A stretch of DNA of 64,000 nt from Bdellovibrionales bacterium (GTDB lineage Bacteria > Bdellovibrionota > Bdellovibrionia > Bdellovibrionales > UBA1609). The notes below the pieces were generated by a model. The model was not told where the DNA came from. It saw only the letters and a list, made by a program, of their open reading frames with translations, and did not search any database. The translations under genes were made by a program, and so were the position numbers. Location: positions 1,043,389 through 1,107,388 of the forward strand of contig CBDHDF010000010.1 of the NCBI GenBank assembly GCA_965261545.1, in the 5' to 3' direction. Below are positions 19,564 to 58,733 of this stretch, piece after piece (within the stretch, counting starts at the first letter, position 1; each line of letters begins with the position of its first letter).

Positions 19564-20448
19564 AAGTCAATAAAAGTCAATAAAAGAAATAGATATTCCG
19601 ATAAGTTCGATAAGTCTAAGATAATTCTAAGATAATTCTAATCTAAGTTTAATTAAATCTAATTAAGCTTGATGATAAATCCTGTCATGGTTCGAAGGGC
19701 TCGAGGAATATAAGGAGAATTATAAGATTGTGAAAGTGGCGAAGAAGAAAAGATTGGCATGGAGATGGGTGGGTTTCGAGCCTGTAAACTATTTTGTGTA
19801 ACTGCCGAATCATATTAGGATGAACTATCATCCTGAAAGGAGAAGGCAGAATGGATATCAAGACAATAGGCAAGGAACTAGCGAAGAGCGTCAAGACCCA
19901 AAAGGATTTATCCGACATAACGGGTCAACTGATGAAGGTTGTTTTAGAGACAGCTCTTAATGCGGAAATGGACGATCACCTAGGTTATGAGAGGCATGAG
20001 AAGTCTGAGACCCGCAAATCCAACACTCGCAATGGTTACAGTAGAAAGACCATAAAGGGAGAGAAAGGCGAGGTGGAGCTTCAGGTCCCCCGTGACCGAA
20101 GTGCCTCCTTTGAGCCCCAAGTCATTCCCAAAGGCAAGACTCGTCTTGAGGGCTTTGAAGACAGTATTCTGACCCTCTATGCGAGGGGAATGACGACCAG
20201 GGATATTCAAGGAGCTATCAAAGACCTTTACCATGGTGCAGAGATATCCCACTCAGTGATAGCCAACGTGACGGATGCTGTTATTGATGAAGTTACGGCT
20301 TGGCAGAACCGCCCCTTGGATAGCACTTACCCTATCGTATTTTTGGACTGTATCGTGGTGAATGCTGAATTTCACGAGTTTGACCCACTGAATTTCACGA
20401 AGTTTGACCCACCCCTCAGTCAGTCAATTTGAGGTCCAATTTTGAATT

Positions 20449-20856
20449 TCACGGTGGCTCAAACTTTGTCAATTTAAACCTTCTTTTTTCTGCTGACTCA
20501 GTAACTTTTACACCCTCAATGTCACGATGTCCCAACGGTGGGTTAAGGCTTATTTGCCAGAATGTTAGATGCCAACTAAAATTGGCCACTTTGTCATTGA
20601 GAATCTCGACCCTCCCCATTTCTGAGGTTTCAATGGAGGGTTTTTCAATGGGGATGTTGAATCCATTGCTCAAAATGGCAGAGAATAGCGAGCCAGTTAT
20701 CCACAAATTTATCCATGGTGACGCTGCGTCTGTGACCCCGATGTCTATCAACGCAGCGCTGCCGTGGGTAAATTTTGTGGATAACTGGCGGGTACATGAT
20801 TCAATAGTTCCGATGGAGTGTCTCCCGATGGTGTCTTCCAAGGTCTGCCTTTGCAT
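20449..20856 (-). CDS. Possible third ORF downstream of istB in IS21-A
   Basis: AAGGAG SD overlapping the istB stop; no recognisable domain; overlaps the conserved hairpin. Confidence 0.3.
   Translation of the reverse strand: MQRQTLEDTIGRHSIGTIESCTRQLSTKFTHGSAALIDIGVTDAASPWINLWITGSLFSAILSNGFNIPIEKPSIETSEMGRVEILNDKVANFSWHLTFWQISLNPPLGHRDIEGVKVTESAEKRRFKLTKFEPP
20692..20789 (+). ncRNA. Candidate structured RNA or ssDNA hairpin with DnaA-box motifs (IS21-A copy)
   Basis: 98-bp imperfect palindrome GCCAGTTATCCAC...GTGGATAACTGGC, 90/98 identical to 25908-26005. Confidence 0.55.
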
Positions 20857-20865
20857 GGATTCTCC

Positions 20866-21594
20866 TTAAATCGTCTTTCTCTGCCTAAATGAGCTTCCAG
20901 ACATGGCTATTTTGATAGCTTGAGAGGTTATGCGATCCATAATAGCTTCACAAACGATGGGATCCTCAATGACTTCACTCCAATTTTTTATTGGAAGTTG
21001 GGTTGTAAGAATGAGGCTCAGGTCAGGGCCTCGTTCATCAATCACATCGTAAAGGTCTTGATATTGGTTAGAGGTAAGGGGCTTGATACCAAAATCATCC
21101 AACACAAGTATCGAGACTGATTTTAGCCTTTTAAGGAAGTTTAGATATGTCCCCTGGGCTCTTTCTAAGTTGAATTTTTCAACAAGAGTATTCATTCTGA
21201 AGAACTGAGTGGAAAAACCTTGGCGACAGGCGTGATTACCTATGGCACAAGCCAAATATGACTTTCCAACACCCGTTGGGCCAGAGATAATTATATTTTG
21301 ACCTCTTTGAGCAAATCTCATAAGGGCTAGATCACTCAAAACTCTTCGATCGACTCCTCGGTTGGATTTGGTTTCAAAGGCCTCAAGGCTTGCTTTTTGC
21401 TGCAAAGCTGCTCTTTTGATAAGTCTTGAGACCTTCTGATTTTCACGATGGATTTTTTCGTCCTCAAAGATGACATTTAGAAAGTCCTCGTAACCAAGAT
21501 CCTGCTCCTCAGCTTCTTTGAGCCTCTGGCTCAAGGTTGCTAAAACTCCCCTCATTTTTAATATCTCTAATAAATTTTCTGTTTGTTTAATCAT
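20866..21594 (-). CDS. istB: IS21 helper AAA+ ATPase
   Basis: GPTGVGKS, LVLDDFG, AIMDR and GSSFR. Confidence 0.93.
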   Translation of the reverse strand: MIKQTENLLEILKMRGVLATLSQRLKEAEEQDLGYEDFLNVIFEDEKIHRENQKVSRLIKRAALQQKASLEAFETKSNRGVDRRVLSDLALMRFAQRGQNIIISGPTGVGKSYLACAIGNHACRQGFSTQFFRMNTLVEKFNLERAQGTYLNFLKRLKSVSILVLDDFGIKPLTSNQYQDLYDVIDERGPDLSLILTTQLPIKNWSEVIEDPIVCEAIMDRITSQAIKIAMSGSSFRQRKTI

Positions 21595-21675
21595 TTTCTT
21601 CTCCTATACGACCTCTCTTATGGAGGTCAAAATGACCCGTTAGGTGGTTGAGAACCACCCACCGGGGCTATGTGA

Positions 21676-23199
21676 TTAGTGGCGGCAAGCATTCTCCCAG
21701 TGCTCTGAACCTCTTAAATTTTCATTAGGTTGACGGCAGACTCTTGGCTCCTCTTTTCGATGACTTTTTGCTGAAATAACTTTCTCAACTCCACGAACCC
21801 TAATGTCACTTAAAGCTGCATCTACAAAAAATGAGCAAGCCTGCTCCAAAGAAGCTGTTGAATACCGTTTTCTTAGATTGAGTATCCCCTGAACACGACG
21901 AAGATACATAAGCGGATGGCGAGGCTCTTTGATAAGCCGCTCGGCAACTTTGTGAATGCTTTCTCCAAGGCTTGATGCCTCTTTAAGTACATTTTGTGGC
22001 GTTTGCTCTAAAATGGCCCGGTGGGACTCAGGGAGATGAGATTTTGTCGTAAAGTAGCGCCCTCGACTGCCCTGGGGGATGTGATGTATCGCCACCCGCT
22101 CTAATTCTGAATAAACCTCCAAGCATTGTTGGCTAATACGAATATCTAACTTCTTGCCGCGATGCTTATAAGGAACAGAGTAAAAATTGTAGTTATATTG
22201 AATGTGACAATCCGGATGAACCTTGGAATGCTTCCAGAATCCACTCTCATAGCGTCTTTCAGGAAGAGGATTCAATTTTGACTTCTCAAAAGATTCAAAC
22301 TTCTGTCGACGACTCAACCCATACTTTTTTTGAATACGATCATTGAAAATAGCTGCCAAATGCTTCAACTCAGCGTTGATGTCTGCTAGAGAATACATTT
22401 GCCGCTCTCTTATCTGGGGCCAAGACCAGCGCCAAAAGACTCCAAGGGTATTTTCGATAAGACTCTTGTCTTTGGGGCGAGATGGCCTCATCGCCAAAGG
22501 AGCCACATTGTAGTGATCACACAAGAGGTGAAACTCAGAGTTAATATCGGGGTCATAAGTATCAGCTCTTGTCACTTGAACCTTTGCGTTATCAAAAGCA
22601 ATGGTTCCGGTCACACCACCAAAAAACTCAAAACCAGAAGCTATGGAGGAAAAAACATCTTCCCGCTGCTCTGTTAATGTGGCGCATGGAAAGAAAAACT
22701 GACTCGATGGAAGTATCATTCCAAATAATCGACATGGGATGAACTCCCCAGTCTTGGCATCTGTATAGCCAAAACAAGAGTCTTTTCCCTTATAGTCAAA
22801 CTCACTCCGTTCACCAGGGGTGAATGTCTGGTGCATATCAAGCTTTATACTTGGGTGCCTCCGACGAAACTCTCTCCAAAAAGAAAGATAACTCACACCG
22901 TCAATCTCGGACTGAATATGTCGCTCCCAGTAATGAGCCAATTGAGTCCCTAGGCTTTGCTTGAGGCGAACATCTGTCCAATTCACCTTGGATGACCATG
23001 GGGCTTGGTAGGGCCCATGCGACCCCTTTGAGCGGCTGTTAGGGCCTCCGGGACTATCCTTCACATACTTCTTCACAGTGTTCCGACTAACACCCATAGC
23101 TCGAGCTATTTGTCTCGAACTGAGTCCAAGCTCTATGTATTTCTTAATATTGTTGATCATTCTTGCTCCTTTTTTCTTACCTTGTTTGCCCATAGACAC
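21676..23199 (-). CDS. istA: IS21 DDE transposase
   Basis: N-terminal HTH, PGERSEFDY, FDNAK, RPKDKSLIE and YSVP. Confidence 0.93.
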   Translation of the reverse strand: MSMGKQGKKKGARMINNIKKYIELGLSSRQIARAMGVSRNTVKKYVKDSPGGPNSRSKGSHGPYQAPWSSKVNWTDVRLKQSLGTQLAHYWERHIQSEIDGVSYLSFWREFRRRHPSIKLDMHQTFTPGERSEFDYKGKDSCFGYTDAKTGEFIPCRLFGMILPSSQFFFPCATLTEQREDVFSSIASGFEFFGGVTGTIAFDNAKVQVTRADTYDPDINSEFHLLCDHYNVAPLAMRPSRPKDKSLIENTLGVFWRWSWPQIRERQMYSLADINAELKHLAAIFNDRIQKKYGLSRRQKFESFEKSKLNPLPERRYESGFWKHSKVHPDCHIQYNYNFYSVPYKHRGKKLDIRISQQCLEVYSELERVAIHHIPQGSRGRYFTTKSHLPESHRAILEQTPQNVLKEASSLGESIHKVAERLIKEPRHPLMYLRRVQGILNLRKRYSTASLEQACSFFVDAALSDIRVRGVEKVISAKSHRKEEPRVCRQPNENLRGSEHWENACRH

Positions 23200-25907
23200 C
23201 TCCTCGTTAATGCGTAGCGCAGAAAGAATATCTATGAAGATCTAAGTGGGTCAATGTTTGGTGAAATTCAGTGGGTCAAACTTCGTGAAATTGGGTGGGT
23301 CAAACCAGGTGAAATTGGGTGGGTCAAACTAGGTGAAATTTTGCATGAAGGTCCATCAAGACAAGAGAGTTATTAATAAGGCGATTTACCTAGCTCTTGG
23401 TATTACAGAGGAGGGTCAGAAAGACTTGTTGGGCCTATGGATTTCTGAAAATGAGGGTTCAAAGTTTTGGTTGAGTGTTTTGACTGAGCTGCAAAATCGA
23501 GGGTTGAAAGACGTATTTATATTTTCTGTAGATGGTCTTACAGGTTTTCCTCAAGCCATTTCAGCGGCTTTTCCCAAGTCTAAAGTACAACTGTGCATTG
23601 TCCATATGGTCCGCAATTCCCTTCGCTATGTCCCTTCCAAGGATATGAAAGCTGTCGCCCAAGACCTCAAGTCCATTTATGGCTCTACGACTCTGACAGA
23701 AGCTGAAAAGGCCCTTGAGGAATTTTGTACCAAGTGGTCTTCAAAGTATCCGAATATTGAAAAGTCTTGGCGTAGGAATTGGGACAATCTCATCACTATT
23801 TTCGATTATCCGGATGAAATCAGAAAGATTTTTTATACCACAAACGCCATAGAGTCGTTAAATAGCGTGATCCGCAAGGCGATCAGAAATCGTAAGATAT
23901 TTCCCAGTGATCGGTCGGCTTTAAAAGTTGTATATTTAGCGATAAAAATGGCCTCTAAGCGATGGACACGACCATTACACAACTGGAAGCCAGCCATGAA
24001 CAGGTTTGCCATTGAATACGGTGACCGTTTTGACAACTAAGTTTTTTAATAAATAAGGTCCCCTTATAAGGGGGCTTAAAAGCCCTCTAAGGCGTTGAGA
24101 AATGCTGGAATACGAGACTATGGTTAGGGTAATATAGTATGGGAACCTAAATACATGCCCTCTTGGTGCAGACTTGGGTTTCCATTTTTTTTCATATTTC
24201 ATCCCAATGCTGGTATTTCTCGAATATCACAAGTTAAAAAAAATAAAAAAAAGGGGGTAATATAGTATGGGAACCTAAACACATGAACCCTTTGATGAGA
24301 TTGGAATTTCCATTTTTTTGAGAGAGCTATTGCTGATTTTTTTCCAACCAAGATGATAATTATTTATTTGAGTTCTTTCCAGTTCTGATATGATCCCATT
24401 ACGGCTCCATCTCCCCATTAAATTATAATGCATTGTGACTGACAAAATCGCTTGAAGGAAAAAATGTCAATTATACATTGACGAATAATATGGGGCTGTG
24501 CTTTTTACCAGGAGTGGAGCCACATAAGTGGCTTTAAGATTTAAGAAAAAAATTGCAGTTACACAATTATTTTTACAGTCCCTGGGTTTCACTTTTTTTA
24601 TTTTTCTTTCTTTCATTTTCTTTCAAAATTGTCTCACCACCCAAGACACGGGATCAATACCCGAGTTTGACAGCAGCATCTGCGTCAAACGAATGATATT
24701 AAAGGATTAACGCATATAGTTGTATTTTGTTTATCCACACTTGTGGGCATTAAGGATTCTGGGAGGGATGGGGACGCCTGCGGCTTTAAATAAGGAGTTG
24801 GCATTGCCAGTGATATCTGTGCGGGTCCAAATGACTTGATCACGAATTTTAACAGGGATAGCCCTAACTTCCTTGAGTTCCCTCATCCTCTACAACAGTT
24901 AAAGGTCGCTCTTTAACATGACCAATGCCTATGGCTGGGCTTTTTAGGTTCATCTTCTTATCTCTTAAACATTTTGTAAGGTGGGCCTCACAAAGATAAG
25001 TTAAAAAGCATAGAGTTAAATGTCCAATAATCCTCTGGTCTGTCCAATGGAAAACAGGACGTGTTTTCAAAGTCCCTTTTAACTCACCAAAAGCATCTTC
25101 AATTTTCCACAATTCTTTGTAGTTGATAATAATCTCATCTGCCGTCAAGTCTTTGACATTTGTAAGGACGGCAAAAAAACCATCAATTTTTTCATCTAAT
25201 TCTATTTGTTCTGCATTTAATTCAGGTTTTTTATTTTTGTCGTCAGCCATCTTTACATATTTCTTATAACCTTTATTGGAAACAAAAGTACTAGACTGAA
25301 CACCTTTAGAAGATAGTTTTCCTTCGATCTTTTCAAGAAGGGATTCTCTAGATTTTTTATCTCTCTCTGCTCTTTTCCTAGACCAAGTCACAATACATCT
25401 ATGCCCCCCATGGTCTGTTTCGTAAACAGCAAGCTCATTCTCATATACCCAGCTAAAACGATTTAAATCATAGACCTCTTGTTTCTTTTCTTTTTTTAAA
25501 GATCCAAGCTTCATACCAACAATAAACTCGCTTTGATCCTCACTGAGTTTGTCAGTATTAGCCTTTGATAAAAGCCCCCTATCAGCCACAAAAATGAAAC
25601 GGTGTTAGGCGCCAATTAAAATTGGCCATTTTTAGAAGCCGTCGCCAATGAAAAACGGCCAGTTGATGATGTACTGATTTAGTTATTCTTCGTTCAGAGT
25701 TTAGTCAAGTGTCTTTATTTTGCTCATCATTTAACTCGGACTATGCCACAAGATTCTGAGGAATGATTTTCTGCCCACCACTTTTGGCATGACCCCAAAT
25801 GCATCCTTCAGCCCTATGGCAGAGGTAAATGGAGTATTTTTCAGGATTCCTTGGCGCAGCTAATGTCTAAAGCTCCGCGAGAGTGACGAGCAAATAGTAC
25901 GGTAAAA

Positions 25908-26005
25908 GCCAGTTATCCATAAATTTATCCATGGCGACACTGCGGCTGTGACCCCGATGTCTAGCAACGCAGTGCTGCTGTGGATAAATTTTGTGGATAA
26001 CTGGC
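25908..26005 (+). ncRNA. Candidate structured RNA or ssDNA hairpin with DnaA-box motifs (IS21-B copy)
   Basis: Homologue of 20692-20789 with pairing-preserving substitutions. Confidence 0.55.
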
Positions 26006-26032
26006 GAGTTCCTTCCCCAAAAGTGGGGATCT

Positions 26033-26815
26033 CTAATGAACTTCTTTGGTTGAACTTTCCTCTTTGCTCTGTTTAGACTTGGCTTTTGCCGATTCGGTTC
26101 TCCAACTTTCTTTTCCTTCAATGTTGAGGGTTTCACAGTTGTGAATGATTCGATCAACAGCAGCAGCGGTGGTAATAGGGTTAAGAAACACCTTATCCCA
26201 TTCAGAGTATGTTAAGTTTGTAGTGATCATGAGACTTTTCCTTTCATATCGCTGAGATATGAATTGAAAGAAAAGATCTGCCCCCTCTGTGCAGGAAGCT
26301 GTATAGCCAAGTTCATCACAAGCAATAAGATCAAAACGGTCTAATTTCTTAAAAAGAGCATTCAATGAGAGTTCTTTCTTGCTTTCACGCATTGTTTCAA
26401 TAAGTTCATGAGTGGTGACCCATAAACATCGATAGCCTTGTTCACAGAGTGAACGAACTAGGGACATGGCCAAATGACTTTTCCCCATTCCAAAGCTTCC
26501 GTAAAACACAACATTACAGGCTTTTCTGACCCACTCTCCCTCTGCCATCCAATTAATTTGCTGAGCTGTCACTCCCGTTCTTTTCTGGAAGTTATAAGTT
26601 TGGAGTGATTTAAGTTGAGGAAGCTTGGCCCCCTTAAGCAATCTTTTCACTCTCTGGGAATGCTTGTCAGCAAGCTCATTTTGAACGAGTATACCTAAAT
26701 ACTGTTCATACGTCTTTTTTGTTTTTTCGGCAACTCTAGCCGTTGCAACATATTCATCCGCCATCGCTGGAAGTCGGAGTTTTTTAAGAGAACCTATAAG
26801 TTCTTCGTGATTCAT
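26033..26815 (-). CDS. istB: IS21 helper AAA+ ATPase
   Basis: GSFGMGKS, ACDELGY, AAVDR and ESWR. Confidence 0.93.
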   Translation of the reverse strand: MNHEELIGSLKKLRLPAMADEYVATARVAEKTKKTYEQYLGILVQNELADKHSQRVKRLLKGAKLPQLKSLQTYNFQKRTGVTAQQINWMAEGEWVRKACNVVFYGSFGMGKSHLAMSLVRSLCEQGYRCLWVTTHELIETMRESKKELSLNALFKKLDRFDLIACDELGYTASCTEGADLFFQFISQRYERKSLMITTNLTYSEWDKVFLNPITTAAAVDRIIHNCETLNIEGKESWRTESAKAKSKQSKEESSTKEVH

Positions 26816-28281
26816 TAAGAACCTCCTATGTTTGGAACAAGACTGTCATATTGAGACAATCTAGGTTGAAGTGGTTTTTGTTGGTCATTCAAATTAATTT
26901 TGGTGGGATTGCCTAAGAGCAAATCTTTTATGGATTTAAAGTCGAAAATCTCACGACTTTCTAATTGAAGCTCCATGGCTGTAGATAAGTCCTGCCAACT
27001 CACATGCTGAATCAAGTTGATAACTCTTAAATATTCATGCTCGGCACGGCTTGAATCTTGTTGCTTGAGGTATTGATAAAAATTTTCAAACACATTTGTT
27101 GGAAAAAGAATGGATCGGTGAGCCCATCTTACCATGGCTTGCGGCTTACGAACTAAAGAGGGAAGGATATGTTCAAGAAGAAGACTATGCTCCCCATCAG
27201 GTTTTCTTTGATGGCGAGCGACAATTTCTTGCTTCCCTCCTGCACGATAGATCGTGACATGATAGGGACCCTGTACGGTTTTACAGGGAGATTGGATCAC
27301 CTCATCAGGTATGGAATATGTGGTTTTACCTATTCTCAAAGTCCCATAACCATTACTTTGACAAATATTCACCTTACAGAGAATATCTTCATCTCGTGGA
27401 GGCAAAGGCTTAAGAACTTTGGCCTCCTCCTCAAAGCGAGATTTGGTGGAGTCACTCTGATGCTGATCCATATAAGACTCTAAAAACTGATTCAAATGAT
27501 CCCAGTCTTTAAAAACAATTCCTTTGTTTCTAACAATATTTTTTATCCGAGAACTGAAGGTTCGAATATCACGCTCCACATCTCCCTTGTCAGAGCCCTT
27601 CCCTGCGCGGCAGGGAAGAACCTTAAATCCATAGTATTGGATGGCTCGATCAAAAGATTGGGTGTAAATTCGCTGATTTCCTTTAAGAACTTTCTTCACA
27701 CAGGGAGATAAATTATCAATACGGATGTTCGCACTCATCCCACCTATCTTTTCAAAAAAAGCATGCACCCCATCGATGAAACACTCATAGACAAGAAAGG
27801 GGTAGGCACGAACCCAACAGGTGCCACTACAAGGCAATGTTCCAAAATGGAGATGAACGATCTGAACACCATCGGCAAATGGTAAAGCAACCTTCTCCTT
27901 AAAATCAAACTGAGCCTGTTCTCCAGGATCATATCTTTGGCTGAAAAAACGCTCCTTGGGGCGAGAACCAAGAATCTCACAAACTCTTCTCTGAACCGTT
28001 CTCTCACTCCCACGATAACCCTCCTCAACTAATAGCTCATATATTTCACGGGCGGTGTTACTTGGGTTCAACTTCAAAAAGTACTTCACCCGATCCATAT
28101 ATCCATTAAGGGGATCTGGGCGAGTTCTTTTGGACCTCGCCTTGTACTTCGGTGGGGTGTTGGACTTACAGTACTTGCGCACCGTCTTACGATTGATCCC
28201 TAATTCACGAGATATTTCTGTCTTATTTTTACCACTGTGACTCAGGTCACGAATGCGGCCGAAAGTGTATTGACTAATCAT
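26815..28281 (-). CDS. istA: IS21 DDE transposase
   Basis: HTH, PGEQAQFDF, IDNL, DKGDVER and YSIP; GAGGAGG before ATG 28281. Confidence 0.92.
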   Translation of the reverse strand: MISQYTFGRIRDLSHSGKNKTEISRELGINRKTVRKYCKSNTPPKYKARSKRTRPDPLNGYMDRVKYFLKLNPSNTAREIYELLVEEGYRGSERTVQRRVCEILGSRPKERFFSQRYDPGEQAQFDFKEKVALPFADGVQIVHLHFGTLPCSGTCWVRAYPFLVYECFIDGVHAFFEKIGGMSANIRIDNLSPCVKKVLKGNQRIYTQSFDRAIQYYGFKVLPCRAGKGSDKGDVERDIRTFSSRIKNIVRNKGIVFKDWDHLNQFLESYMDQHQSDSTKSRFEEEAKVLKPLPPRDEDILCKVNICQSNGYGTLRIGKTTYSIPDEVIQSPCKTVQGPYHVTIYRAGGKQEIVARHQRKPDGEHSLLLEHILPSLVRKPQAMVRWAHRSILFPTNVFENFYQYLKQQDSSRAEHEYLRVINLIQHVSWQDLSTAMELQLESREIFDFKSIKDLLLGNPTKINLNDQQKPLQPRLSQYDSLVPNIGGS

Positions 28282-28406
28282 AAGATCCTCCTCATTGCTA
28301 ACCTTTTGAGTTGCAAAAGGGAGGGACTCTGTGAGCTTAGTATCTATATCAGAAGAAGAGACTTCATTGTCTAGTATTTGAACACTCCCTGAAGATTGGT
28401 CACTTT

Positions 28407-28781
28407 TCATTGGCGACAACCTCCATATTGAAAGTGGGACATTTTAATTGGCGACGGCTTTAAGGGAAGCCTGTCTTCAAAAAGAAATTCCATGAAAATT
28501 GAGGCAAATGTTGGAATCTTGTGGAATTTAAATACTTTAGAAAATGGGCACAGCCTAAACAGGCTTTTCTTGACTATATATTTAACCTCATTGAAATCCA
28601 GAAACAGTCTACAAATGAGAAATATGGAACCTGAATAGGCTGTCATGGAAGGACTCTCCAACACGGAGCCCCTTTCCAGGTCGACAAGAACCCAAAAGGA
28701 GTTCTTATCAGCTCGGAGCCTTTTTATGAGTAATATCAATTGATTATATGCGTCTCGGTTGACAATGCCAAAAATCACCAT
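28407..28781 (-). CDS. Hypothetical passenger ORF upstream of istA in IS21-B
   Basis: GAGGAGG SD; lies between two clusters of IS end repeats. Confidence 0.45.
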   Translation of the reverse strand: MVIFGIVNRDAYNQLILLIKRLRADKNSFWVLVDLERGSVLESPSMTAYSGSIFLICRLFLDFNEVKYIVKKSLFRLCPFSKVFKFHKIPTFASIFMEFLFEDRLPLKPSPIKMSHFQYGGCRQ

Positions 28782-29960
28782 AGGTCCTCCTCTGAAAAGT
28801 GGCCACTTTTCATTGGCGACGGTGGGGCATTTTAATTGTCAGCTAACAAACGGCGTACATTAAACTTTTTTCTCATTTTATCAACAATATCTGAAAGCGT
28901 CTTGCCTTCAAAAGTATTACCAGGGAAAACCTCAAAACCTAAAGGGATGCCATCCCGATTCACCAACAAACCAAAGACAACTTGGGTGCAGTCTGATCGT
29001 CTCTCTTTACTATAGCCAAATTGACGAAGTTTCCCTAAGTCTGTTCTTGTACTCTCGAAGCGTAAGGTTGTTAAATCATACAACACAATGTCTACTTGGA
29101 AATTAAATAAATCTCGCCCCACCCAATAAAGCGAGTTCTCTATTTCATCCTTATGGGAGGCAAGTAAGTCCATAGACCGATAAATATGCTGGAGACTCAA
29201 ATCACCCTTAATCATGTCTGGGTAAAAAGATTTTTGCCAATACTCAAAAACCTTTAACTTGGAACTAGGAGCAATAAATCGGCTGGCAACTAAGGTAAAA
29301 ATCACCTTACATAAATCAAATTGAACTTTCTCATGAGAATCTTTTATGTCTTTGAGGGTCTTATTGATACCCAGTTGATCAAACAACTTTTGTAAAATCA
29401 GCAAGGGACCCAAAATGAAAGTCTCTTCGATGTAAAGCTCCTTAGCCAATTGACTCACAGTGAGAAGCTCTCGGTGGCGGGATACGGCCTGCGCCAAACT
29501 ATTAATCTTATCCTCTCCTCCTTCTCCAGCCTTACCTAAGGACATGAGCATGCGTTTTTTGGATTTGCCTTTTTCTCTGTAGGACTCCACAAGGTGGTAG
29601 TAGCACTGACCTTTTGAGTTTTTAGTCGTTTGGATGTACATGAGGATATTTTCTACATATTTCTATGATATATCAATATTTAAAACGATAAAATCCTATT
29701 TTGTTTTCTACACTTTTTTTACGTCAATTTTAATTTTTCCAGCAGCTACCATTATATTTCAGTACAACCCCAATTTCTGGAAATTTCGCATTTTAACGCA
29801 GATGCTGCTGTCAAACTCGGGAGATATTCCGATAAGTTCGATAAGTCTAAGATAATTCTAAGATAATTCTAATCTAAGTTTAATTAAATCTAATTAAGCT
29901 TGATGATAAATCCTGTCATGGTTCGAAGGGCTCGAGGAATATAAGGAGAATTATAAGATT

Positions 29961-31378: not shown

Positions 31379-31418
31379 AGGTTTTTTAGCTAGCCTCGTC
31401 GTTGTTGCTTAAGTATTT
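31379..31418 (+). repeat. 40-bp target duplication, left copy (right copy 33332-33371)
   Basis: AGGTTTTTTAGCTAGCCTCGTCGTTGTTGCTTAAGTATTT abuts both TIRs. Confidence 0.95.
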
Positions 31419-33331
31419 CCCGAGTTTGACAGCAGCATCTGCGTCAAACGAATGATATTAAAGGATTAACGCATATAGTTGTATTTTGTTTATCCACACT
31501 TGTGGGCATTAAGGATTCTGGGAGGGATGGGGACGCCTGCGGCTTTAAATAAGGAGTTGGCATTGCCAGTGATATCTGTGCGGGTCCAAATGACTTGATC
31601 ACGAATTTTAACAGGGATAGCCCTAACTTCCTTGAGTTCCCTCATGGCCTCTACAACAGTTAAAGGTCGCTCTTTAACATGACCAATGCCTATGGCTGGG
31701 CTTTTTAGGTTCATCTTCTTATCTCTTAAACATTTTGTAAGGTGGGCCTCACAAAGATAAGTTAAAAAGCATAGAGTTAAATGTCCAATAATCCTCTGGT
31801 CTGTCCAATGGAAAACAGGACGTGTTTTCAAAGTCCCTTTTAACTCACCAAAAGCATCTTCAATTTTCCACAATTCTTTGTAGTTGATAATAATCTCATC
31901 TGCCGTCAAGTCTTTGACATTTGTAAGGACGGCAAAAAAACCATCAATTTTTTCATCTAATTCTATTTGTTCTGCATTTAATTCAGGTTTTTTATTTTTG
32001 TCGTCAGCCATCTTTACATATTTCTTATAACCTTTATTGGAAACAAAAGTACTAGACTGAACACCTTTAGAAGATAGTTTTCCTTCGATCTTTTCAAGAA
32101 GGGATTCTCTAGATTTTTTATCCCTCTCTGCTCTTTTCCTAGACCAAGTCACAATACATCTATGCCCCCCATGGTCTGTTTCGTAAACAGCAAGCTCATT
32201 CTCATATACCCAGCTAAAACGATTTAAATCATAGACCTCTTGTTTCTTTTCTTTTTTTAAAGATCCAAGCTTCATACCAACAATAAACTCGCTTTGATCC
32301 TCACTGAGTTTGTCAGTATTAGCCTTTGATAAAAGCCCCCTATCAGCCACAAAAATGAAACGGCGTACATTAAACTTTTTTCTCATTTTATCAACAATAT
32401 CTGAAAGCGTCTTGCCTTCAAAAGTATTACCAGGGAAAACCTCAAAACCTAAAGGGATGCCATCCCGATTCACCAACAAACCAAAGACAACTTGGGTGCA
32501 GTCTGATCGTCTCTCTTTACTATAGCCAAATTGACGAAGTTTCCCTAAGTCTGTTCTTGTACTCTCGAAGCGTAAGGTTGTTAAATCATACAACACAATG
32601 TCTACTTGGAAATTAAATAAATCTCGCCCCACCCAATAAAGCGAGTTCTCTATTTCATCCTTATGGGAGGCAAGTAAGTCCATAGACCGATAAATATGCT
32701 GGAGACTCAAATCACCCTTAATCATGTCTGGGTAAAAAGATTTTTGCCAATACTCAAAAACCTTTAACTTGGAACTAGGAGCAATAAATCGGCTGGCAAC
32801 TAAGGTAAAAATCACCTTACATAAATCAAATTGAACTTTCTCATGAGAATCTTTTATGTCTTTGAGGGTCTTATTGATACCCAGTTGATCAAACAACTTT
32901 TGTAAAATCAGCAAGGGACCCAAAATGAAAGTCTCTTCGATGTAAAGCTCCTTAGCCAATTGACTCACAGTGAGAAGCTCTCGGTGGCGGGATACGGCCT
33001 GCGCCAAACTATTAATCTTATCCTCTCCTCCTTCTCCAGCCTTACCTAAGGACATGAGCATGCGTTTTTTGGATTTGCCTTTTTCTCTGTAGGACTCCAC
33101 AAGGTGGTAGTAGCACTGACCTTTTGAGTTTTTAGTCGTTTGGATGTACATGAGGATATTTTCTACATATTTCTATGATATATCAATATTTAAAACGATA
33201 AAATCCTATTTTGTTTTCTACACTTTTTTTGCGTCAATTTTAATTTTTCCAGCAGCTACCATTATATTTCAGTACAACCCCAATTTCTGGAAATTTCGCA
33301 TTTTAACGCAGATGCTGCTGTCAAACTCGGG
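31419..33331 (-). mobile_element. IS1634-family copy 4, intact, 1913 bp
   Basis: TIRs plus 40-bp direct repeat. Confidence 0.97.
31490..33151 (-). CDS. IS1634-family transposase, 553 aa
   Basis: Differs from 13106-14767 at only two residues. Confidence 0.93.
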   Translation of the reverse strand: MYIQTTKNSKGQCYYHLVESYREKGKSKKRMLMSLGKAGEGGEDKINSLAQAVSRHRELLTVSQLAKELYIEETFILGPLLILQKLFDQLGINKTLKDIKDSHEKVQFDLCKVIFTLVASRFIAPSSKLKVFEYWQKSFYPDMIKGDLSLQHIYRSMDLLASHKDEIENSLYWVGRDLFNFQVDIVLYDLTTLRFESTRTDLGKLRQFGYSKERRSDCTQVVFGLLVNRDGIPLGFEVFPGNTFEGKTLSDIVDKMRKKFNVRRFIFVADRGLLSKANTDKLSEDQSEFIVGMKLGSLKKEKKQEVYDLNRFSWVYENELAVYETDHGGHRCIVTWSRKRAERDKKSRESLLEKIEGKLSSKGVQSSTFVSNKGYKKYVKMADDKNKKPELNAEQIELDEKIDGFFAVLTNVKDLTADEIIINYKELWKIEDAFGELKGTLKTRPVFHWTDQRIIGHLTLCFLTYLCEAHLTKCLRDKKMNLKSPAIGIGHVKERPLTVVEAMRELKEVRAIPVKIRDQVIWTRTDITGNANSLFKAAGVPIPPRILNAHKCG

Positions 33332-55282: not shown

Positions 55283-56730
55283 AAGGTCATAGTAAGTTTC
55301 AACGTGAACCATGTTGTAAAAAGCACCATGGTTTTAGGTATGTGATTGTGGGATTCTGTGTGATTTTTTTTATAGGAATTATTGGTTTAAATTTAAACGC
55401 ACAGTCAAAAGAGAGGTATTTAACTCTCCAATTATTTGCAAAAGTTTTAAATCTTGTTCAAGAGCACTACGTTGAGGATGTGGATATCAAAAAATTGATA
55501 CATGGAGGCATCAAGGGGATGCTCAATGAACTAGATCCTCATACCCATATCCTTGGACCTGAGTTGTTCAAGGAGTTTCAAACGGAGACATCAGGCCAGT
55601 TTGGAGGTCTTGGTGTTGAGGTAACTCTCATAAAAGATGTGCTTACAATTATTTCTCCCATTGAAGATACTCCTGCGTGGCGAGCGGGCTTAAAGCCAGG
55701 AGATAAAATTGTTTCTATCAATGGTGAGTCCACAAAAGGTTTAAGTCTTGCTGAGGCCGCTCAACGTATGCGTGATCCCAAGGGAAAAATCATCCACTTA
55801 GGTATTTTCAGAGAGGGTCTTATAAAACCAAAAATGTACTCTATTGAGCGAGGTATTGTAAAAATACATTCTTCTAAATACACGAATCTAAAAGAAGGTT
55901 ATGCCTATGTCAAAATCACAAGCTTTATAGAAAGCACATCGAAGGATTTTAAAAATATTTTAAAAAAACATATAAAAGATAACAAGAAAATCAAAGGTCT
56001 TATTATTGACATACGGAGAAACCCTGGAGGTTTATTGGATCAAGCCATCGCTGTTAGTGACTTATTTCTCTCAAAAGGAGTCATTGTGAGCACTCGTGGA
56101 AAAAAGAAAAACCAAGAACACACTTGGTATGCCAGCAAACATGGAACTTATAAGGGCTTCCCCATTATTATTCTCATTGATGAATACTCGGCCAGTGCCA
56201 GCGAGATTCTCGCCGGTGCACTTCAAGATAATAAGAGAGCTTTGATTATGGGACAAAAAAGTTTTGGGAAAGGATCTGTTCAATCTATGGTGAGGCTCAA
56301 CGATGGATCAGCTCTTAAAATCACGGTGGCAAGGTACTACACTCCCAAGGGCTCTTCCATTCAAGCAGAGGGAATCATTCCAGATATAAAGGTAGCTCAT
56401 ATAGATGCTGCAATTTTACAGCAAGCAACCAGTCAAGTTTTATTTACTAAAAGGGAAAGAGATATAGTCGGACACCTTCAGAATGAAAAAAGTTCTAATA
56501 AGAATAAAGAAGGTTCTGACAAGGGGGGCAAGGTCACCGGCAAAAGCTTTTGGTGGAATCAAAGTCACGACAAGAAAGACCTTTCCCCTAAAGGTCAATT
56601 GCTCCGTGATGATTTTCAGGTTCTTCAAGCATACAACTACTTAAAGGCATGGAAAGTCATGAGTGGCTTTGGCTATAATGAAAAGCGCAATGAGCAGCAC
56701 AACGAGAAGGGGAAGGATCAAAAGCTTTGA
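55279..56730 (+). CDS. S41 C-terminal processing protease (CtpA/Prc family)
   Basis: LDPH, PDZ, DIRRNPGG, SASASE and GKGSVQ. Confidence 0.92.
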   Translation: MKGHSKFQREPCCKKHHGFRYVIVGFCVIFFIGIIGLNLNAQSKERYLTLQLFAKVLNLVQEHYVEDVDIKKLIHGGIKGMLNELDPHTHILGPELFKEFQTETSGQFGGLGVEVTLIKDVLTIISPIEDTPAWRAGLKPGDKIVSINGESTKGLSLAEAAQRMRDPKGKIIHLGIFREGLIKPKMYSIERGIVKIHSSKYTNLKEGYAYVKITSFIESTSKDFKNILKKHIKDNKKIKGLIIDIRRNPGGLLDQAIAVSDLFLSKGVIVSTRGKKKNQEHTWYASKHGTYKGFPIIILIDEYSASASEILAGALQDNKRALIMGQKSFGKGSVQSMVRLNDGSALKITVARYYTPKGSSIQAEGIIPDIKVAHIDAAILQQATSQVLFTKRERDIVGHLQNEKSSNKNKEGSDKGGKVTGKSFWWNQSHDKKDLSPKGQLLRDDFQVLQAYNYLKAWKVMSGFGYNEKRNEQHNEKGKDQKL

Positions 56731-57291
56731 GAATAGTGGGGAGGGAGCCTTGCTTATTGGCTCCCCTGGAACTGGAAAAAGCCACATTGCAAAAGCTATA
56801 GCCACCAAGGTCTGTTCCATATCAAATTACAAGGTTTTGTATCAGGAAGCTCACAAGCTCTTTGAAAATCTCTTTGAGGCCAGGCAGCTGGGGCGCAGAA
56901 AGAGGTTCTACACCCAACTCATCCATGTGGACCTATTGATCATTGATGATCTTTTTCTTAGAAAGCGCATTCCGCCAGAGGCTTGCGATGACTTCCAGGA
57001 AATCATTCTGGATCGATACTCAGCGAGAAAAAGCACTCTTATTACCTCCAATCGCATTATTGAGGACTGGGGAAAGTGTTTGGGCGATAATACCGTGGCC
57101 TCTGCCATCCTGGATCGCCTTCTCCACTGCAGCCAACTATTAAAATTTGAGGGAAAAAGCTACCGATTGAAGGAAGCTTCAAACCGACTTGTCAAGATAA
57201 AAAATTAAAGGTAGGGTGAGCCCATCTTGTCAGATCACCCTAAATGGCCTGGTTTGCCCGCCCACAAATGGCCTGGTTTAACCCGCCCATC
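56731..57291 (+). mobile_element. IS21 remnant: 5'-truncated istB (to 57208) plus right-end repeats
   Basis: GSPGTGKS, IIDD, AILDRL and GKSYR; tandem AAATGGCCTGGTTT..CCCGCCCA repeats; no istA. Confidence 0.85.
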
Positions 57292-57302
57292 GGGGCTAAA
57301 GT

Positions 57303-58733
57303 TCAGCAGAAAATATTCGGGTGCTTTCGTTCGACGGACACTGGGATTCTGAGATAAAATTGACTGCCCTCTGCCGAAGTCCAATCAATGCCAGCTTCAC
57401 CACCATGGGCATACATAATATGGCGGACAATGGACAAACCAAGACCTGTGCCTCCCTTGTCACGGCTTCGCCCCTTATCAACACGGTAAAAGCGTTCAAA
57501 AAGTCGAGACTGTTGAGTTTCCTTTATTCCTGGTCCACAATCCCTTACAAGAAGGTCTATAAAATTATCAACTCGACGGGATGAAATCGTCACTGTCGTG
57601 TTTTTAGGACCATATTTAATGGCATTATCCACCAAATTCACCAAAGCTTGTATCAACAAGGTGAGGTTTCCCTGAAATTCTGTAATTTCTAAGTGCTGGG
57701 CCTCAATGGAAATGCCTCTGTCCTGCGCCTTTTGTGAACAAACTTCTATGCTTCCCTTGACAACATCTTCAAGGTAAGTCCACTGCACATTAGAAATACG
57801 ATCTCCCTTTTCTAGCTCCGACAATACCAATAGATTATCAATCAAAGAATCCAAATGATCCGCATGTTTTTGAATAACTTTTGAAAATTGTCGAAAATGC
57901 TCTTGAGATTGAAGAGCCGGATTTTGCATGGTTTCAGCATAGCCCTTAATAGACGTGAGTGGTGTTTTCAGTTCATGGGAGGCATTGGAAACAAACTCTT
58001 GCCTATGACGCTCCAATTTCCTCAGCTCAGAAACATCCACAAGTACAAATATGGAACCACGAAACTTAGCTTTGAGGGAAAAAATAGGACTGGAGCGAAC
58101 AATAAAGACTCTTTCTGAAACCTTGTTCTCATCAAGAATGATCTCTCTTTTCTGTTTTTCCTGACAAGCAGCTGCATGTTCAATAAATTCCCTTAAACTA
58201 GATAATCCAACAATATCTTGCACATAAAAATCCTCTTTCATCTCCATGTGAATACCTAAGATTTCTTTGGACGAAGAGTTCATGTGGTTAATGCGACCCT
58301 CTTCATTAACAGAAATCACCCCCTCATCCATATTCTCCAGAATAACCTCTTGTTGTATTTGCCCCTTAATAACAGCCTTTTGACTGCTTCTAAAATCTCT
58401 CACAAGTTTGGAAAGAGTTGATGCTATGGATAAGATTTCTTGGGGAGTTCTTTTCTTCTTTTGAAAGGAAGCTTTCAAGTTCCCCTCAGTGACATTTTCG
58501 ATATAGGTTTTAAGATCTTGCATGGGACTAAGAGCTCTTTGTAGGATCCACCAAAGAAAAATACCAGAAATCAAGAAAACACAAATAACAAGAAAAAACT
58601 GTAAAGGCTGCCAAGACAATAAGCCCAAAGTTGCAACCATGGCAAAGACAACAACACATAAACAGGGAGGGAAAACACGCCATATATATGTTTTAATGGG
58701 AAGCACCATCATCAAAGCGATAACCCACTCCAT
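57303..58733 (-). CDS. PhoR-like sensor histidine kinase (HAMP-PAS-HisKA-HATPase); start uncertain
   Basis: SHELKTPLT, NLVDNAIKY, FERFYRVDK and GTGLGL. Confidence 0.9.
   Translation of the reverse strand: MEWVIALMMVLPIKTYIWRVFPPCLCVVVFAMVATLGLLSWQPLQFFLVICVFLISGIFLWWILQRALSPMQDLKTYIENVTEGNLKASFQKKKRTPQEILSIASTLSKLVRDFRSSQKAVIKGQIQQEVILENMDEGVISVNEEGRINHMNSSSKEILGIHMEMKEDFYVQDIVGLSSLREFIEHAAACQEKQKREIILDENKVSERVFIVRSSPIFSLKAKFRGSIFVLVDVSELRKLERHRQEFVSNASHELKTPLTSIKGYAETMQNPALQSQEHFRQFSKVIQKHADHLDSLIDNLLVLSELEKGDRISNVQWTYLEDVVKGSIEVCSQKAQDRGISIEAQHLEITEFQGNLTLLIQALVNLVDNAIKYGPKNTTVTISSRRVDNFIDLLVRDCGPGIKETQQSRLFERFYRVDKGRSRDKGGTGLGLSIVRHIMYAHGGEAGIDWTSAEGSQFYLRIPVSVERKHPNIFC

Follow-up and report, generated by a model that had tools for sequence, protein, structure and literature searches.

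The window, a 64,000-nt stretch of a Bdellovibrionales bacterium genome (contig CBDHDF010000010.1) to which all coordinates without a prefix refer, contains two insertion sequences (IS) of the IS21 family, IS21-A and IS21-B, each with a DnaA-box hairpin just downstream of its istB gene (Table 1). The proteins of the two elements are very different, as a preliminary description of the window had stated (25% identity between their IstB and 23% between their IstA proteins). The hairpin, called family I here, is a structured and covarying element that favours one strand and is confined to IS ends; similarly built hairpins are present in other IS families and in microviruses.

The two 98-bp copies lie where the preliminary description placed them and differ, as it counted, at 8 positions (13, 28, 32, 38, 57, 66, 72 and 77 in hairpin numbering). 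According to an explicit pair table, each copy has 37 opposed positions, which on the + strand comprise 32 Watson-Crick pairs, 4 G·T pairs and 1 A·C opposition. The six stem differences are of the kinds then proposed: pair 32/66 is compensatory (GC versus AT), and pairs 13/86, 21/77, 26/72 and 28/70 switch between Watson-Crick and G·T; the differences at 38 and 57 fall within the loop region. Each copy contains four box-like 9-mers, with 0, 2, 2 and 0 mismatches to the DnaA box in copy A and 1, 2, 0 and 0 in copy B, which agrees with the two perfect boxes per copy reported before. Folding z-scores range from -6.8 to -10.9, and 0 of 200 shuffles fold equally well. The calculated energies of the two copies favour the + over the - strand, with a gap of 8 to 9.5 kcal/mol using RNA energies (-64.5 versus -56.5 and -64.6 versus -55.1 kcal/mol) and a weaker preference of 0.7 to 3.6 kcal/mol using DNA energies (-34.8 versus -31.2 and -33.6 versus -32.9 kcal/mol).

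Integron attC sites, whose R boxes are ordered RYYYAAC ... GTTRRRY, were considered and ruled out: in the hairpin sequence GTT comes first, AAC comes last and RRRY is absent.

Table 1. Positions of the hairpins, their box-bearing arms and the carrier elements in the window
Feature	Position	Strand	Remarks
Hairpin copy A (family I)	20692..20789	+	G·T pairs on + strand; 76 bp 3' of the istB-A stop
Copy A 5' arm	20697..20717	+	perfect DnaA box 20697-20705, 2-mismatch box 20709-20717; period 12 bp
Copy A 3' arm	20763..20784	-	2-mismatch box 20763-20771, perfect box 20776-20784; period 13 bp
Hairpin copy B (family I)	25908..26005	+	27 bp 3' of the istB-B stop
Copy B 5' arm	25913..25933	+	1-mismatch box 25913-25921, 2-mismatch box 25925-25933
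Copy B 3' arm	25979..26000	-	perfect boxes 25979-25987 and 25992-26000; intron-site equivalent at 25980, empty
Small second hairpin	26015..26028		immediately 3' of copy B, by sequence
IS21-A	20363..23345	-	TG...CA ends, repeated end motifs, 4-bp target duplication; sits in an IS256 transposase gene
IS21-B-type terminal repeat within IS21-A	20563..20587	+	18 copies; 105 bp before the hairpin
istB of IS21-A, 242 aa	20866..21594	-	PF01695, E 1.7e-60
istA of IS21-A, 507 aa	21676..23199	-	NF033546 above cut-off
IS21-B, 3246 bp	25603..28848	-	5-bp target duplication; sits in an IS1634 copy
istB of IS21-B, 260 aa	26033..26815	-	PF01695, E 3.1e-57
istA of IS21-B, 534 aa	26815..28419	-	NF033546 above cut-off
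istB remnant, third IS21 family	56663..57208	+	comparison case without hairpin

Distribution, covariation and strand polarity of family I

A genome survey with nhmmer gives 109 non-overlapping matches, classed by their flanking IS: 64 are flanked by IS21-B (55 on both sides and 9 on one side; several matches are halves of intron-split copies), 18 by IS21-A (its hairpin-bearing copies genome-wide), 24 by an ISL3 element and 3 by an IS110 element. The carriers in this genome are four elements from three IS families. Every match has an IS flank and none is free-standing (0 of 109), and the hairpin lacks ends of its own such as REP or MITE repeats have. The hairpin is not specific to IS21. The ISL3 and IS110 variants are about 75 to 79% identical to copy A and have in common 21 bases before the hairpin and about 55 after it; a motif resembling the small second hairpin next to copy B follows both variants and is absent after copy A. 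The favoured, G·T-bearing strand is antisense to the transposase gene in IS21-A, IS21-B and IS110 and sense in ISL3. The earlier statement that pairing is best on the strand antisense to istAB, namely the + strand, holds for both window copies but is not general.

The covariation set consists of 8 family I variants, few and related, in which 33 named pairs are 98.1% paired, compared with 27 to 51% in slid controls. Four pairs are compensatory, three in the 4-nt linker region between the boxes and one in the inner stem. Moreover, all five one-sided changes retain a G·T pair on the + strand, two further G·T pairs and one A·C opposition are invariant, all 8 variants have their more stable DNA fold on the + strand (by 0.7 to 4.0 kcal/mol), and every variant holds two perfect boxes. 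The earlier suggestion of a portable, structured module with one preferred strand is upheld by the four carriers, the four compensatory pairs and the five retained G·T pairs. However, the evidence for strand polarity from family I alone is moderate, since the sequences are few and related and four of the five one-sided changes are C/T on the + strand, a pattern that biased deamination could also produce.

Among about 18 IS21-A copies, the 98-bp hairpin has 0 variable sites versus 64 in 2426 bp elsewhere in the element (about 2.6 would be expected, a difference that is not significant alone), while the ISL3 copies have 4 variable sites in 100 bp of hairpin versus 12 in 64 bp and 13 in 135 bp of flank. 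A point missed in the preliminary description is that IS21-A has a second piece in common with IS21-B, the terminal repeat listed in Table 1. Because of this repeat, and because one IS21-B-flanked copy carries A-type alleles, IS21-A probably took the hairpin from an IS21-B-like right end; the likeness of copies A and B probably reflects recent capture and not deep conservation. No tandem end-to-end junctions able to show the recipient end were found.

A group II intron follows hairpin position 73 in five copies (C2:463439, C2:47981, C10:508725, C11:1056665 and C11:695069; prefixes denote contigs of this genome), and the same intron follows a similar 14-15 nt sequence in two IS1634-type ends. 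These insertions were rejected as evidence of strand, since the shared upstream sequence occurs in the IS1634 ends too (5 of 7 versus 2 of 7 sites). The 5' end of a second intron enters one ISL3 copy (C10:111670).

The genome has one dnaA gene and 298 perfect DnaA boxes, compared with about 48 expected from base composition, and 202 of them lie within the hairpins. Its dnaA-dnaN gap (C4:31645-31870) is origin-like, with consensus-type boxes at 13 and 12 bp spacing and, further on, a box, a GC cluster, CTA trios and an AT-rich tract. The 12- and 13-bp periods of the hairpin arms match this spacing, but without the trio run; reading of the sequence beside the boxes in copies A and B finds neither a DnaA-trio run nor an AT-rich tract. 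Background on DnaA-trios, datA and DARS is given in PMC13220808.

Searches beyond this genome return no further member of family I. Pattern scans of genome contigs give three origin-like box arrays in one and none in another, with no family I homologue; a metagenome pattern scan gives 0 matches, and plasmid and phage searches give none. A DNA search of 60 relatives yields one 24-nt match, inside a coding gene, and model R1 detects 0 in 108 genomes of the family and 0 in 150 of the class. No relatives of IstB-A were confirmed, and a search for relatives of the ISL3 transposase gives one weak match.

Hairpins of the same build in other insertion sequences and in microviruses

Inverted perfect boxes 50 to 80 bp apart occur in 49 of 400 genomes of the phylum; among the matches listed, these look like box clusters or lack a long stem, except in one genome (G434), and two of these phylum matches (L079 and L071) were the ones folded. 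The G434 locus has a different hairpin of the same outline after the stop codon of an IS3 orfB, and it led to a second family (family II) whose build comprises a DnaA box, a bulge, a second half-box and, on one of the two strands, T·G pairs. Inside the orfB that precedes this G434 hairpin lies a group II intron with a reverse transcriptase gene (L079:1160-2446). In the IS3 elements of two Legionella plasmids, the family II hairpin is better conserved than the flanking non-coding DNA; blastn of both families against plasmids gives no A-site record.

The 20-base 5' arm of family II retrieves 57 metagenome loci, which a tally by eye divides into 36 full hairpins, 15 cut by contig ends, one with swapped arms (L096), one true origin (L120), one single arm after an IS3 (L143) and three without a hairpin. 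The neighbouring frames scanned (n=34) are 29 of IS3, 3 of ISNCY, 1 of IS256 and 1 dnaA; at two more loci, in elements whose ends are not mapped, the hairpin precedes an IS256 gene and is on its sense strand. Further, 4 of 301 genomes from another phylum hold 10 arm matches, all 10 in IS481 (in swapped order) or IS3-type ends, with three frames confirmed by NCBIfam. At the swapped-order arms after ISNCY and IS481 transposases (L096:1790-1870; L395, L399, L402 and L404), the antisense strand folds better. The arm pattern is present in 0 of 5 locus genomes, and blastn with the L277, L323 and L096 hairpins gives nothing, or short chance matches in a tail gene.

The family II alignment contains 28 of the 35 distinct full hairpins, near-duplicates being left out, with the 5' arm fixed by the search pattern. 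In this alignment, 97.0% of cells are paired and six pairs are compensatory. Box position 4 has a partner that lies outside the search pattern; this is a G (forming T·G) in 19 of the 28 hairpins and an A in 5, and the position is unpaired in 4. Given the 19 with G, the 3' arm is preserved more for its ability to pair than as a perfect box in duplex DNA. The T·G-bearing strand folds better as DNA in 32 of 35 family II hairpins.

Five viral scans, in which both strands were searched, give at least 237 loci, and at least 13 of these are microvirus loci from 7 contigs and about 6 lineages (identified by tblastn, with genes assigned by PHROGs). In all 7 microvirus contigs among the matches listed, the hairpin is intergenic (VP3-Rep or after VP5), and the same 7 have the unbroken arm and the T·G pairs on the coding strand, which in microviruses is the packaged strand. 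With DNA energies, the coding strand has the more stable fold in 4 of 6 lineages; in the other 2, the opposite strand is ahead by 0.3 and 1.1 kcal/mol. The arms of one microvirus hairpin (L386) and of the IS110 variant of family I are equal at 19 of 21 and 17 of 20 positions. Most of the control microviruses (L387-L394) have a strong hairpin with a common 9-nt loop before the Rep gene, which is probably the nick site. Many larger viral contigs among the matches listed (L150-L269 and L278-L385) carry dense DnaA-box arrays resembling bacterial origins.

Families I and II and the phage hairpins have this build in common. Their common descent is unproven, since 12-bp tandem boxes are common in origins and since model R1 gives 14 to 34 bits to the family II and phage hairpins and 31 bits to the box palindrome of a true origin (L120). 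The occurrence of the family II build in IS3, IS256, ISNCY and IS481, and on the coding strand of microviruses, is new here. No published account of such a hairpin in insertion sequences or microviruses was found in a search that left most subscription papers and ISfinder outside, nor any literature pairing TTATCCACA with insertion-sequence stem-loops; the available parts of PMC10122671 and PMC9345347 contain nothing on this hairpin.

A putative DnaA-dependent loading site and the alternatives

IS3, IS21, IS256, IS110 and ISL3 elements have circular intermediates and presumably transpose by copy-out/paste-in, in which a second 3'-OH primes the circular copy (10.1101/2023.06.07.543989), and host replication converts the figure-eight into a duplex circle (PMC7780238). 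At the A site, DnaA on a box in a single-stranded DNA hairpin recruits DnaBC, followed by priming and synthesis, and such a hairpin suffices in vitro for DnaB loading and priming (PMC6127211). By analogy with these systems, we give somewhat better than even credence to the reading that family I is a portable cis module of several IS whose + strand folds as single-stranded DNA, forming a putative DnaA-dependent helicase and primase loading site that aids the conversion of copy-out circles. Synthesis from the flank 3'-OH would displace the circularised strand from its 5' end; the displaced strand would be the folded one, in which the hairpin rebuilds the DnaA boxes as a duplex stem. Close to the 5' end of this strand, host DnaA would bind the stem and load the replicative helicase together with primase; running 5' to 3' into the element, the helicase would support priming and thereby help to turn the displaced transposon strand into a double-stranded circle. 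The placement near the 5' end is suggested by the orientation of the folded strand, which reads inward from the nearest end in every mapped carrier but ISL3 (IS21-A, IS21-B, IS110, IS3, ISNCY, IS481 and IS256).

A broader reading, which we advance tentatively and rate a little short of even, is that there exists a widespread class of natural, as yet undescribed DnaA-box hairpins, exchanged among circle-forming IS (IS21, ISL3, IS110, IS3, IS256, IS481 and ISNCY) and microviruses, that would act as DnaA-dependent single-strand origins for helicase loading on displaced strands and for complementary-strand priming in phages. Microviruses probably need a hairpin for complementary-strand synthesis (PMC9865509). 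If the loading-site reading is right, the ABC-type hairpin would have a role in nature, and this in two kinds of mobile DNA that are unrelated; a cis signal would tie the gain in IS copy number to DnaA, and the recipient IS end would become predictable. The control of initiation may also be affected by the presence of about 200 extra perfect DnaA boxes in a single chromosome. The DnaA-dependent link between transposition and replication proposed in the preliminary description finds support by analogy only (202 of 298 boxes in hairpins, the same build in single-stranded DNA phages), whereas specificity for IS21 or IstB is not supported.

Several results weigh against the loading-site reading, beyond the commonness of tandem boxes in origins, the R1 score of the origin palindrome, the C/T bias of the one-sided changes and the two microvirus lineages that favour the opposite strand. 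Most circle-forming elements examined here lack the hairpin: among 65 multi-copy protein groups of this genome, labelled by sequence reading, two further IS21 families, IS256, IS3 and a second IS110 are without it, and IstB-B relatives (51-71% identity) carry it at 0 of 7 loci, one of which has no downstream DNA. Together with the third IS21 remnant of the window, which has no DnaA box with at most one mismatch in 57101-57480, these cases agree with the earlier remark that the hairpin is optional. The ISL3 matches, 24 of 109, have the opposite polarity; hairpin orientation has no leading or lagging bias (33 versus 36, with a noisy skew); and 0 of 8 unselected GenBank microviruses have such a hairpin. 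Further, the host encodes PriA, which provides another priming route, and DciA, so the DnaA-DnaB-DnaC reaction of E. coli need not transfer; given both proteins, the module would be an optional aid with a loader unlike that of E. coli.

A role as duplex DNA, with four head-to-head boxes binding DnaA to gate transposition to the replication state, silence read-through or titrate the initiator, and with the palindrome as a by-product, is rather unlikely. It would explain why all family I variants keep two perfect boxes and why the hairpins hold so many of the genome's perfect boxes, and it would suit the lone perfect boxes without a long hairpin in the IS1634 end (38 copies genome-wide) and the IS110 left end (4 copies), as well as the letter-exact family II arm of a true origin between dnaA and dnaN (L120); Tn5, whose outside end has a single box, is a precedent (PMC3347997). 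However, the compensatory changes sit outside the boxes, most family II hairpins have a 3'-arm box broken in a way compatible with T·G pairing, either arm may come first (L096 and G640 loci), which preserves pairing while reversing box direction, and the arms, unlike the boxes of the host origin, lead into neither a trio run nor an AT-rich tract. G·U pairs suit RNA, the strand gap is larger with RNA energies and a 10/12 promoter-like site lies on the + strand 110 nt before copy A, all of which would fit an RNA element, a long stem-loop of antisense or read-through RNA that tunes transposase expression through polymerase pausing or RNase III cleavage. We nevertheless regard this RNA element as quite unlikely: promoter-like sites near the hairpin are at chance level (1 versus 1.0 expected), no U-tract terminator site matches the long stem on either strand (the lone terminator-like match is a 6-pair stem inside the copy B 3' arm, incompatible with the long stem), and DnaA boxes would have no reason to persist in it. 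No Rfam family matches the hairpin at the gathering score, the sole match in the window being a tRNA, while at the E-value level the hairpin matches microRNA-type hairpin models only (best 35.7 bits versus a threshold of 79). Relative to the transposase gene, moreover, the favoured strand has no fixed orientation: IS21, IS110 and IS3 have it as the antisense strand, ISL3 and the two loci upstream of IS256 genes as the sense strand. With the promoter count, the sense polarity in ISL3 also leaves the earlier idea of an antisense regulator of istAB unsupported.

That the hairpin is a near-neutral passenger, namely origin-like DNA or an old miniature element acquired once, which then spread as IS ends nested and recombined while template switching maintained the palindrome, is very doubtful. 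Family I was found in this genome only in all searches, and nested, chimeric elements are common here, as the IS21-B-type end of IS21-A and the B-flanked copy with A alleles attest; yet what outlasts each transfer is the hairpin with no more than 20-55 flanking bases, template switching would erase the conserved G·T pairs, the IS21-A copies have no variable site in the hairpin (not significant alone), and other families as well as compact phage genomes have hairpins of this build. Recognition of the boxes by the IS21 transpososome or by IstB, itself an AAA+ ATPase related to DnaA, is extremely improbable, although the position of the hairpin just after istB in both IS21 elements might suggest it. 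The part of DnaA that reads the box is its C-terminal domain, and IstB-A and IstB-B match ATPase models only, not this domain. Also against specificity for IS21 or IstB are the carriers in ISL3, IS110, IS3, IS256, ISNCY, IS481 and microviruses, in which no istB was found beside the hairpin.

To place the putative loading site among known systems, the arms have tandem DnaA boxes, as an oriC module does, and a box inside a paired stem, as does the A site of the ABC primosome. The likeness to the A site extends to a consensus box in the stem, to related hairpins on single-stranded DNA phage genomes and, less clearly, to a preference for one strand, for which G·T polarity and the coding-strand position in 7 of 7 microvirus contigs speak, while DNA energies agree in 4 of 6 phages; the A site, compared here by description and not by sequence, has a single box, while the IS ends have a tandem pair in a host with DciA. 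The hairpin is therefore A-site-like by anatomy, and membership cannot be claimed. REP/REPIN, PATE and MITE are also palindromic repeats, and they resemble family I in its roughly 100 imperfect palindromes and in a site entered by a group II intron, but the hairpin is never free-standing (0 of 109) and has neither its own ends nor a target duplication. The primosome hairpin of phiX174 is a PriA-type site, and the B. subtilis-type oriC layout is box 6/7 plus a GC cluster. The microvirus hairpins resemble the phiX174-type complementary-strand origin in being intergenic, on the coding strand and with compensatory changes (PMC9865509), but differ in carrying DnaA boxes, in their rarity among microviruses (0 of 8 controls) and in occurring in insertion sequences as well. 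Features that recall the B. subtilis-type oriC (PMC13220808) are the tandem boxes with a short GC cluster behind them, the exact family II arm in one origin (L120) and the host-origin spacing, but the trio run and AT-rich tract are missing and the two arms face each other and pair. In the outside end of Tn5/IS50, a host initiator site likewise lies in a transposable element near its end; there, the box is within the 19-bp end and competes with transposase (PMC3347997), whereas the hairpin boxes lie 140-690 bp in from the end and belong to a covarying stem of 33-37 bp that moved between families.

Carrier elements and neighbouring features

Both window elements have the istA-istB gene pair, the TG...CA ends and the target duplication of IS21. 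A 135-codon frame (20449-20856, - strand) begins right after istB-A with a strong ribosome-binding-like sequence and crosses the hairpin; it has no Pfam match, and a conserved peptide over the hairpin was rejected, as no counterpart of at least 100 codons exists at copy B. A 124-codon frame (28407-28781, - strand), located upstream of istA-B with a set of end repeats on either side, likewise has no Pfam match. Positions 1-34000 of the window are densely filled with nested IS4-like, IS256, IS1634 and IS21 elements, and the lone perfect DnaA box of the IS1634 end is about 50 bp inside the terminal repeat (24657-24750 and 31416-31510).

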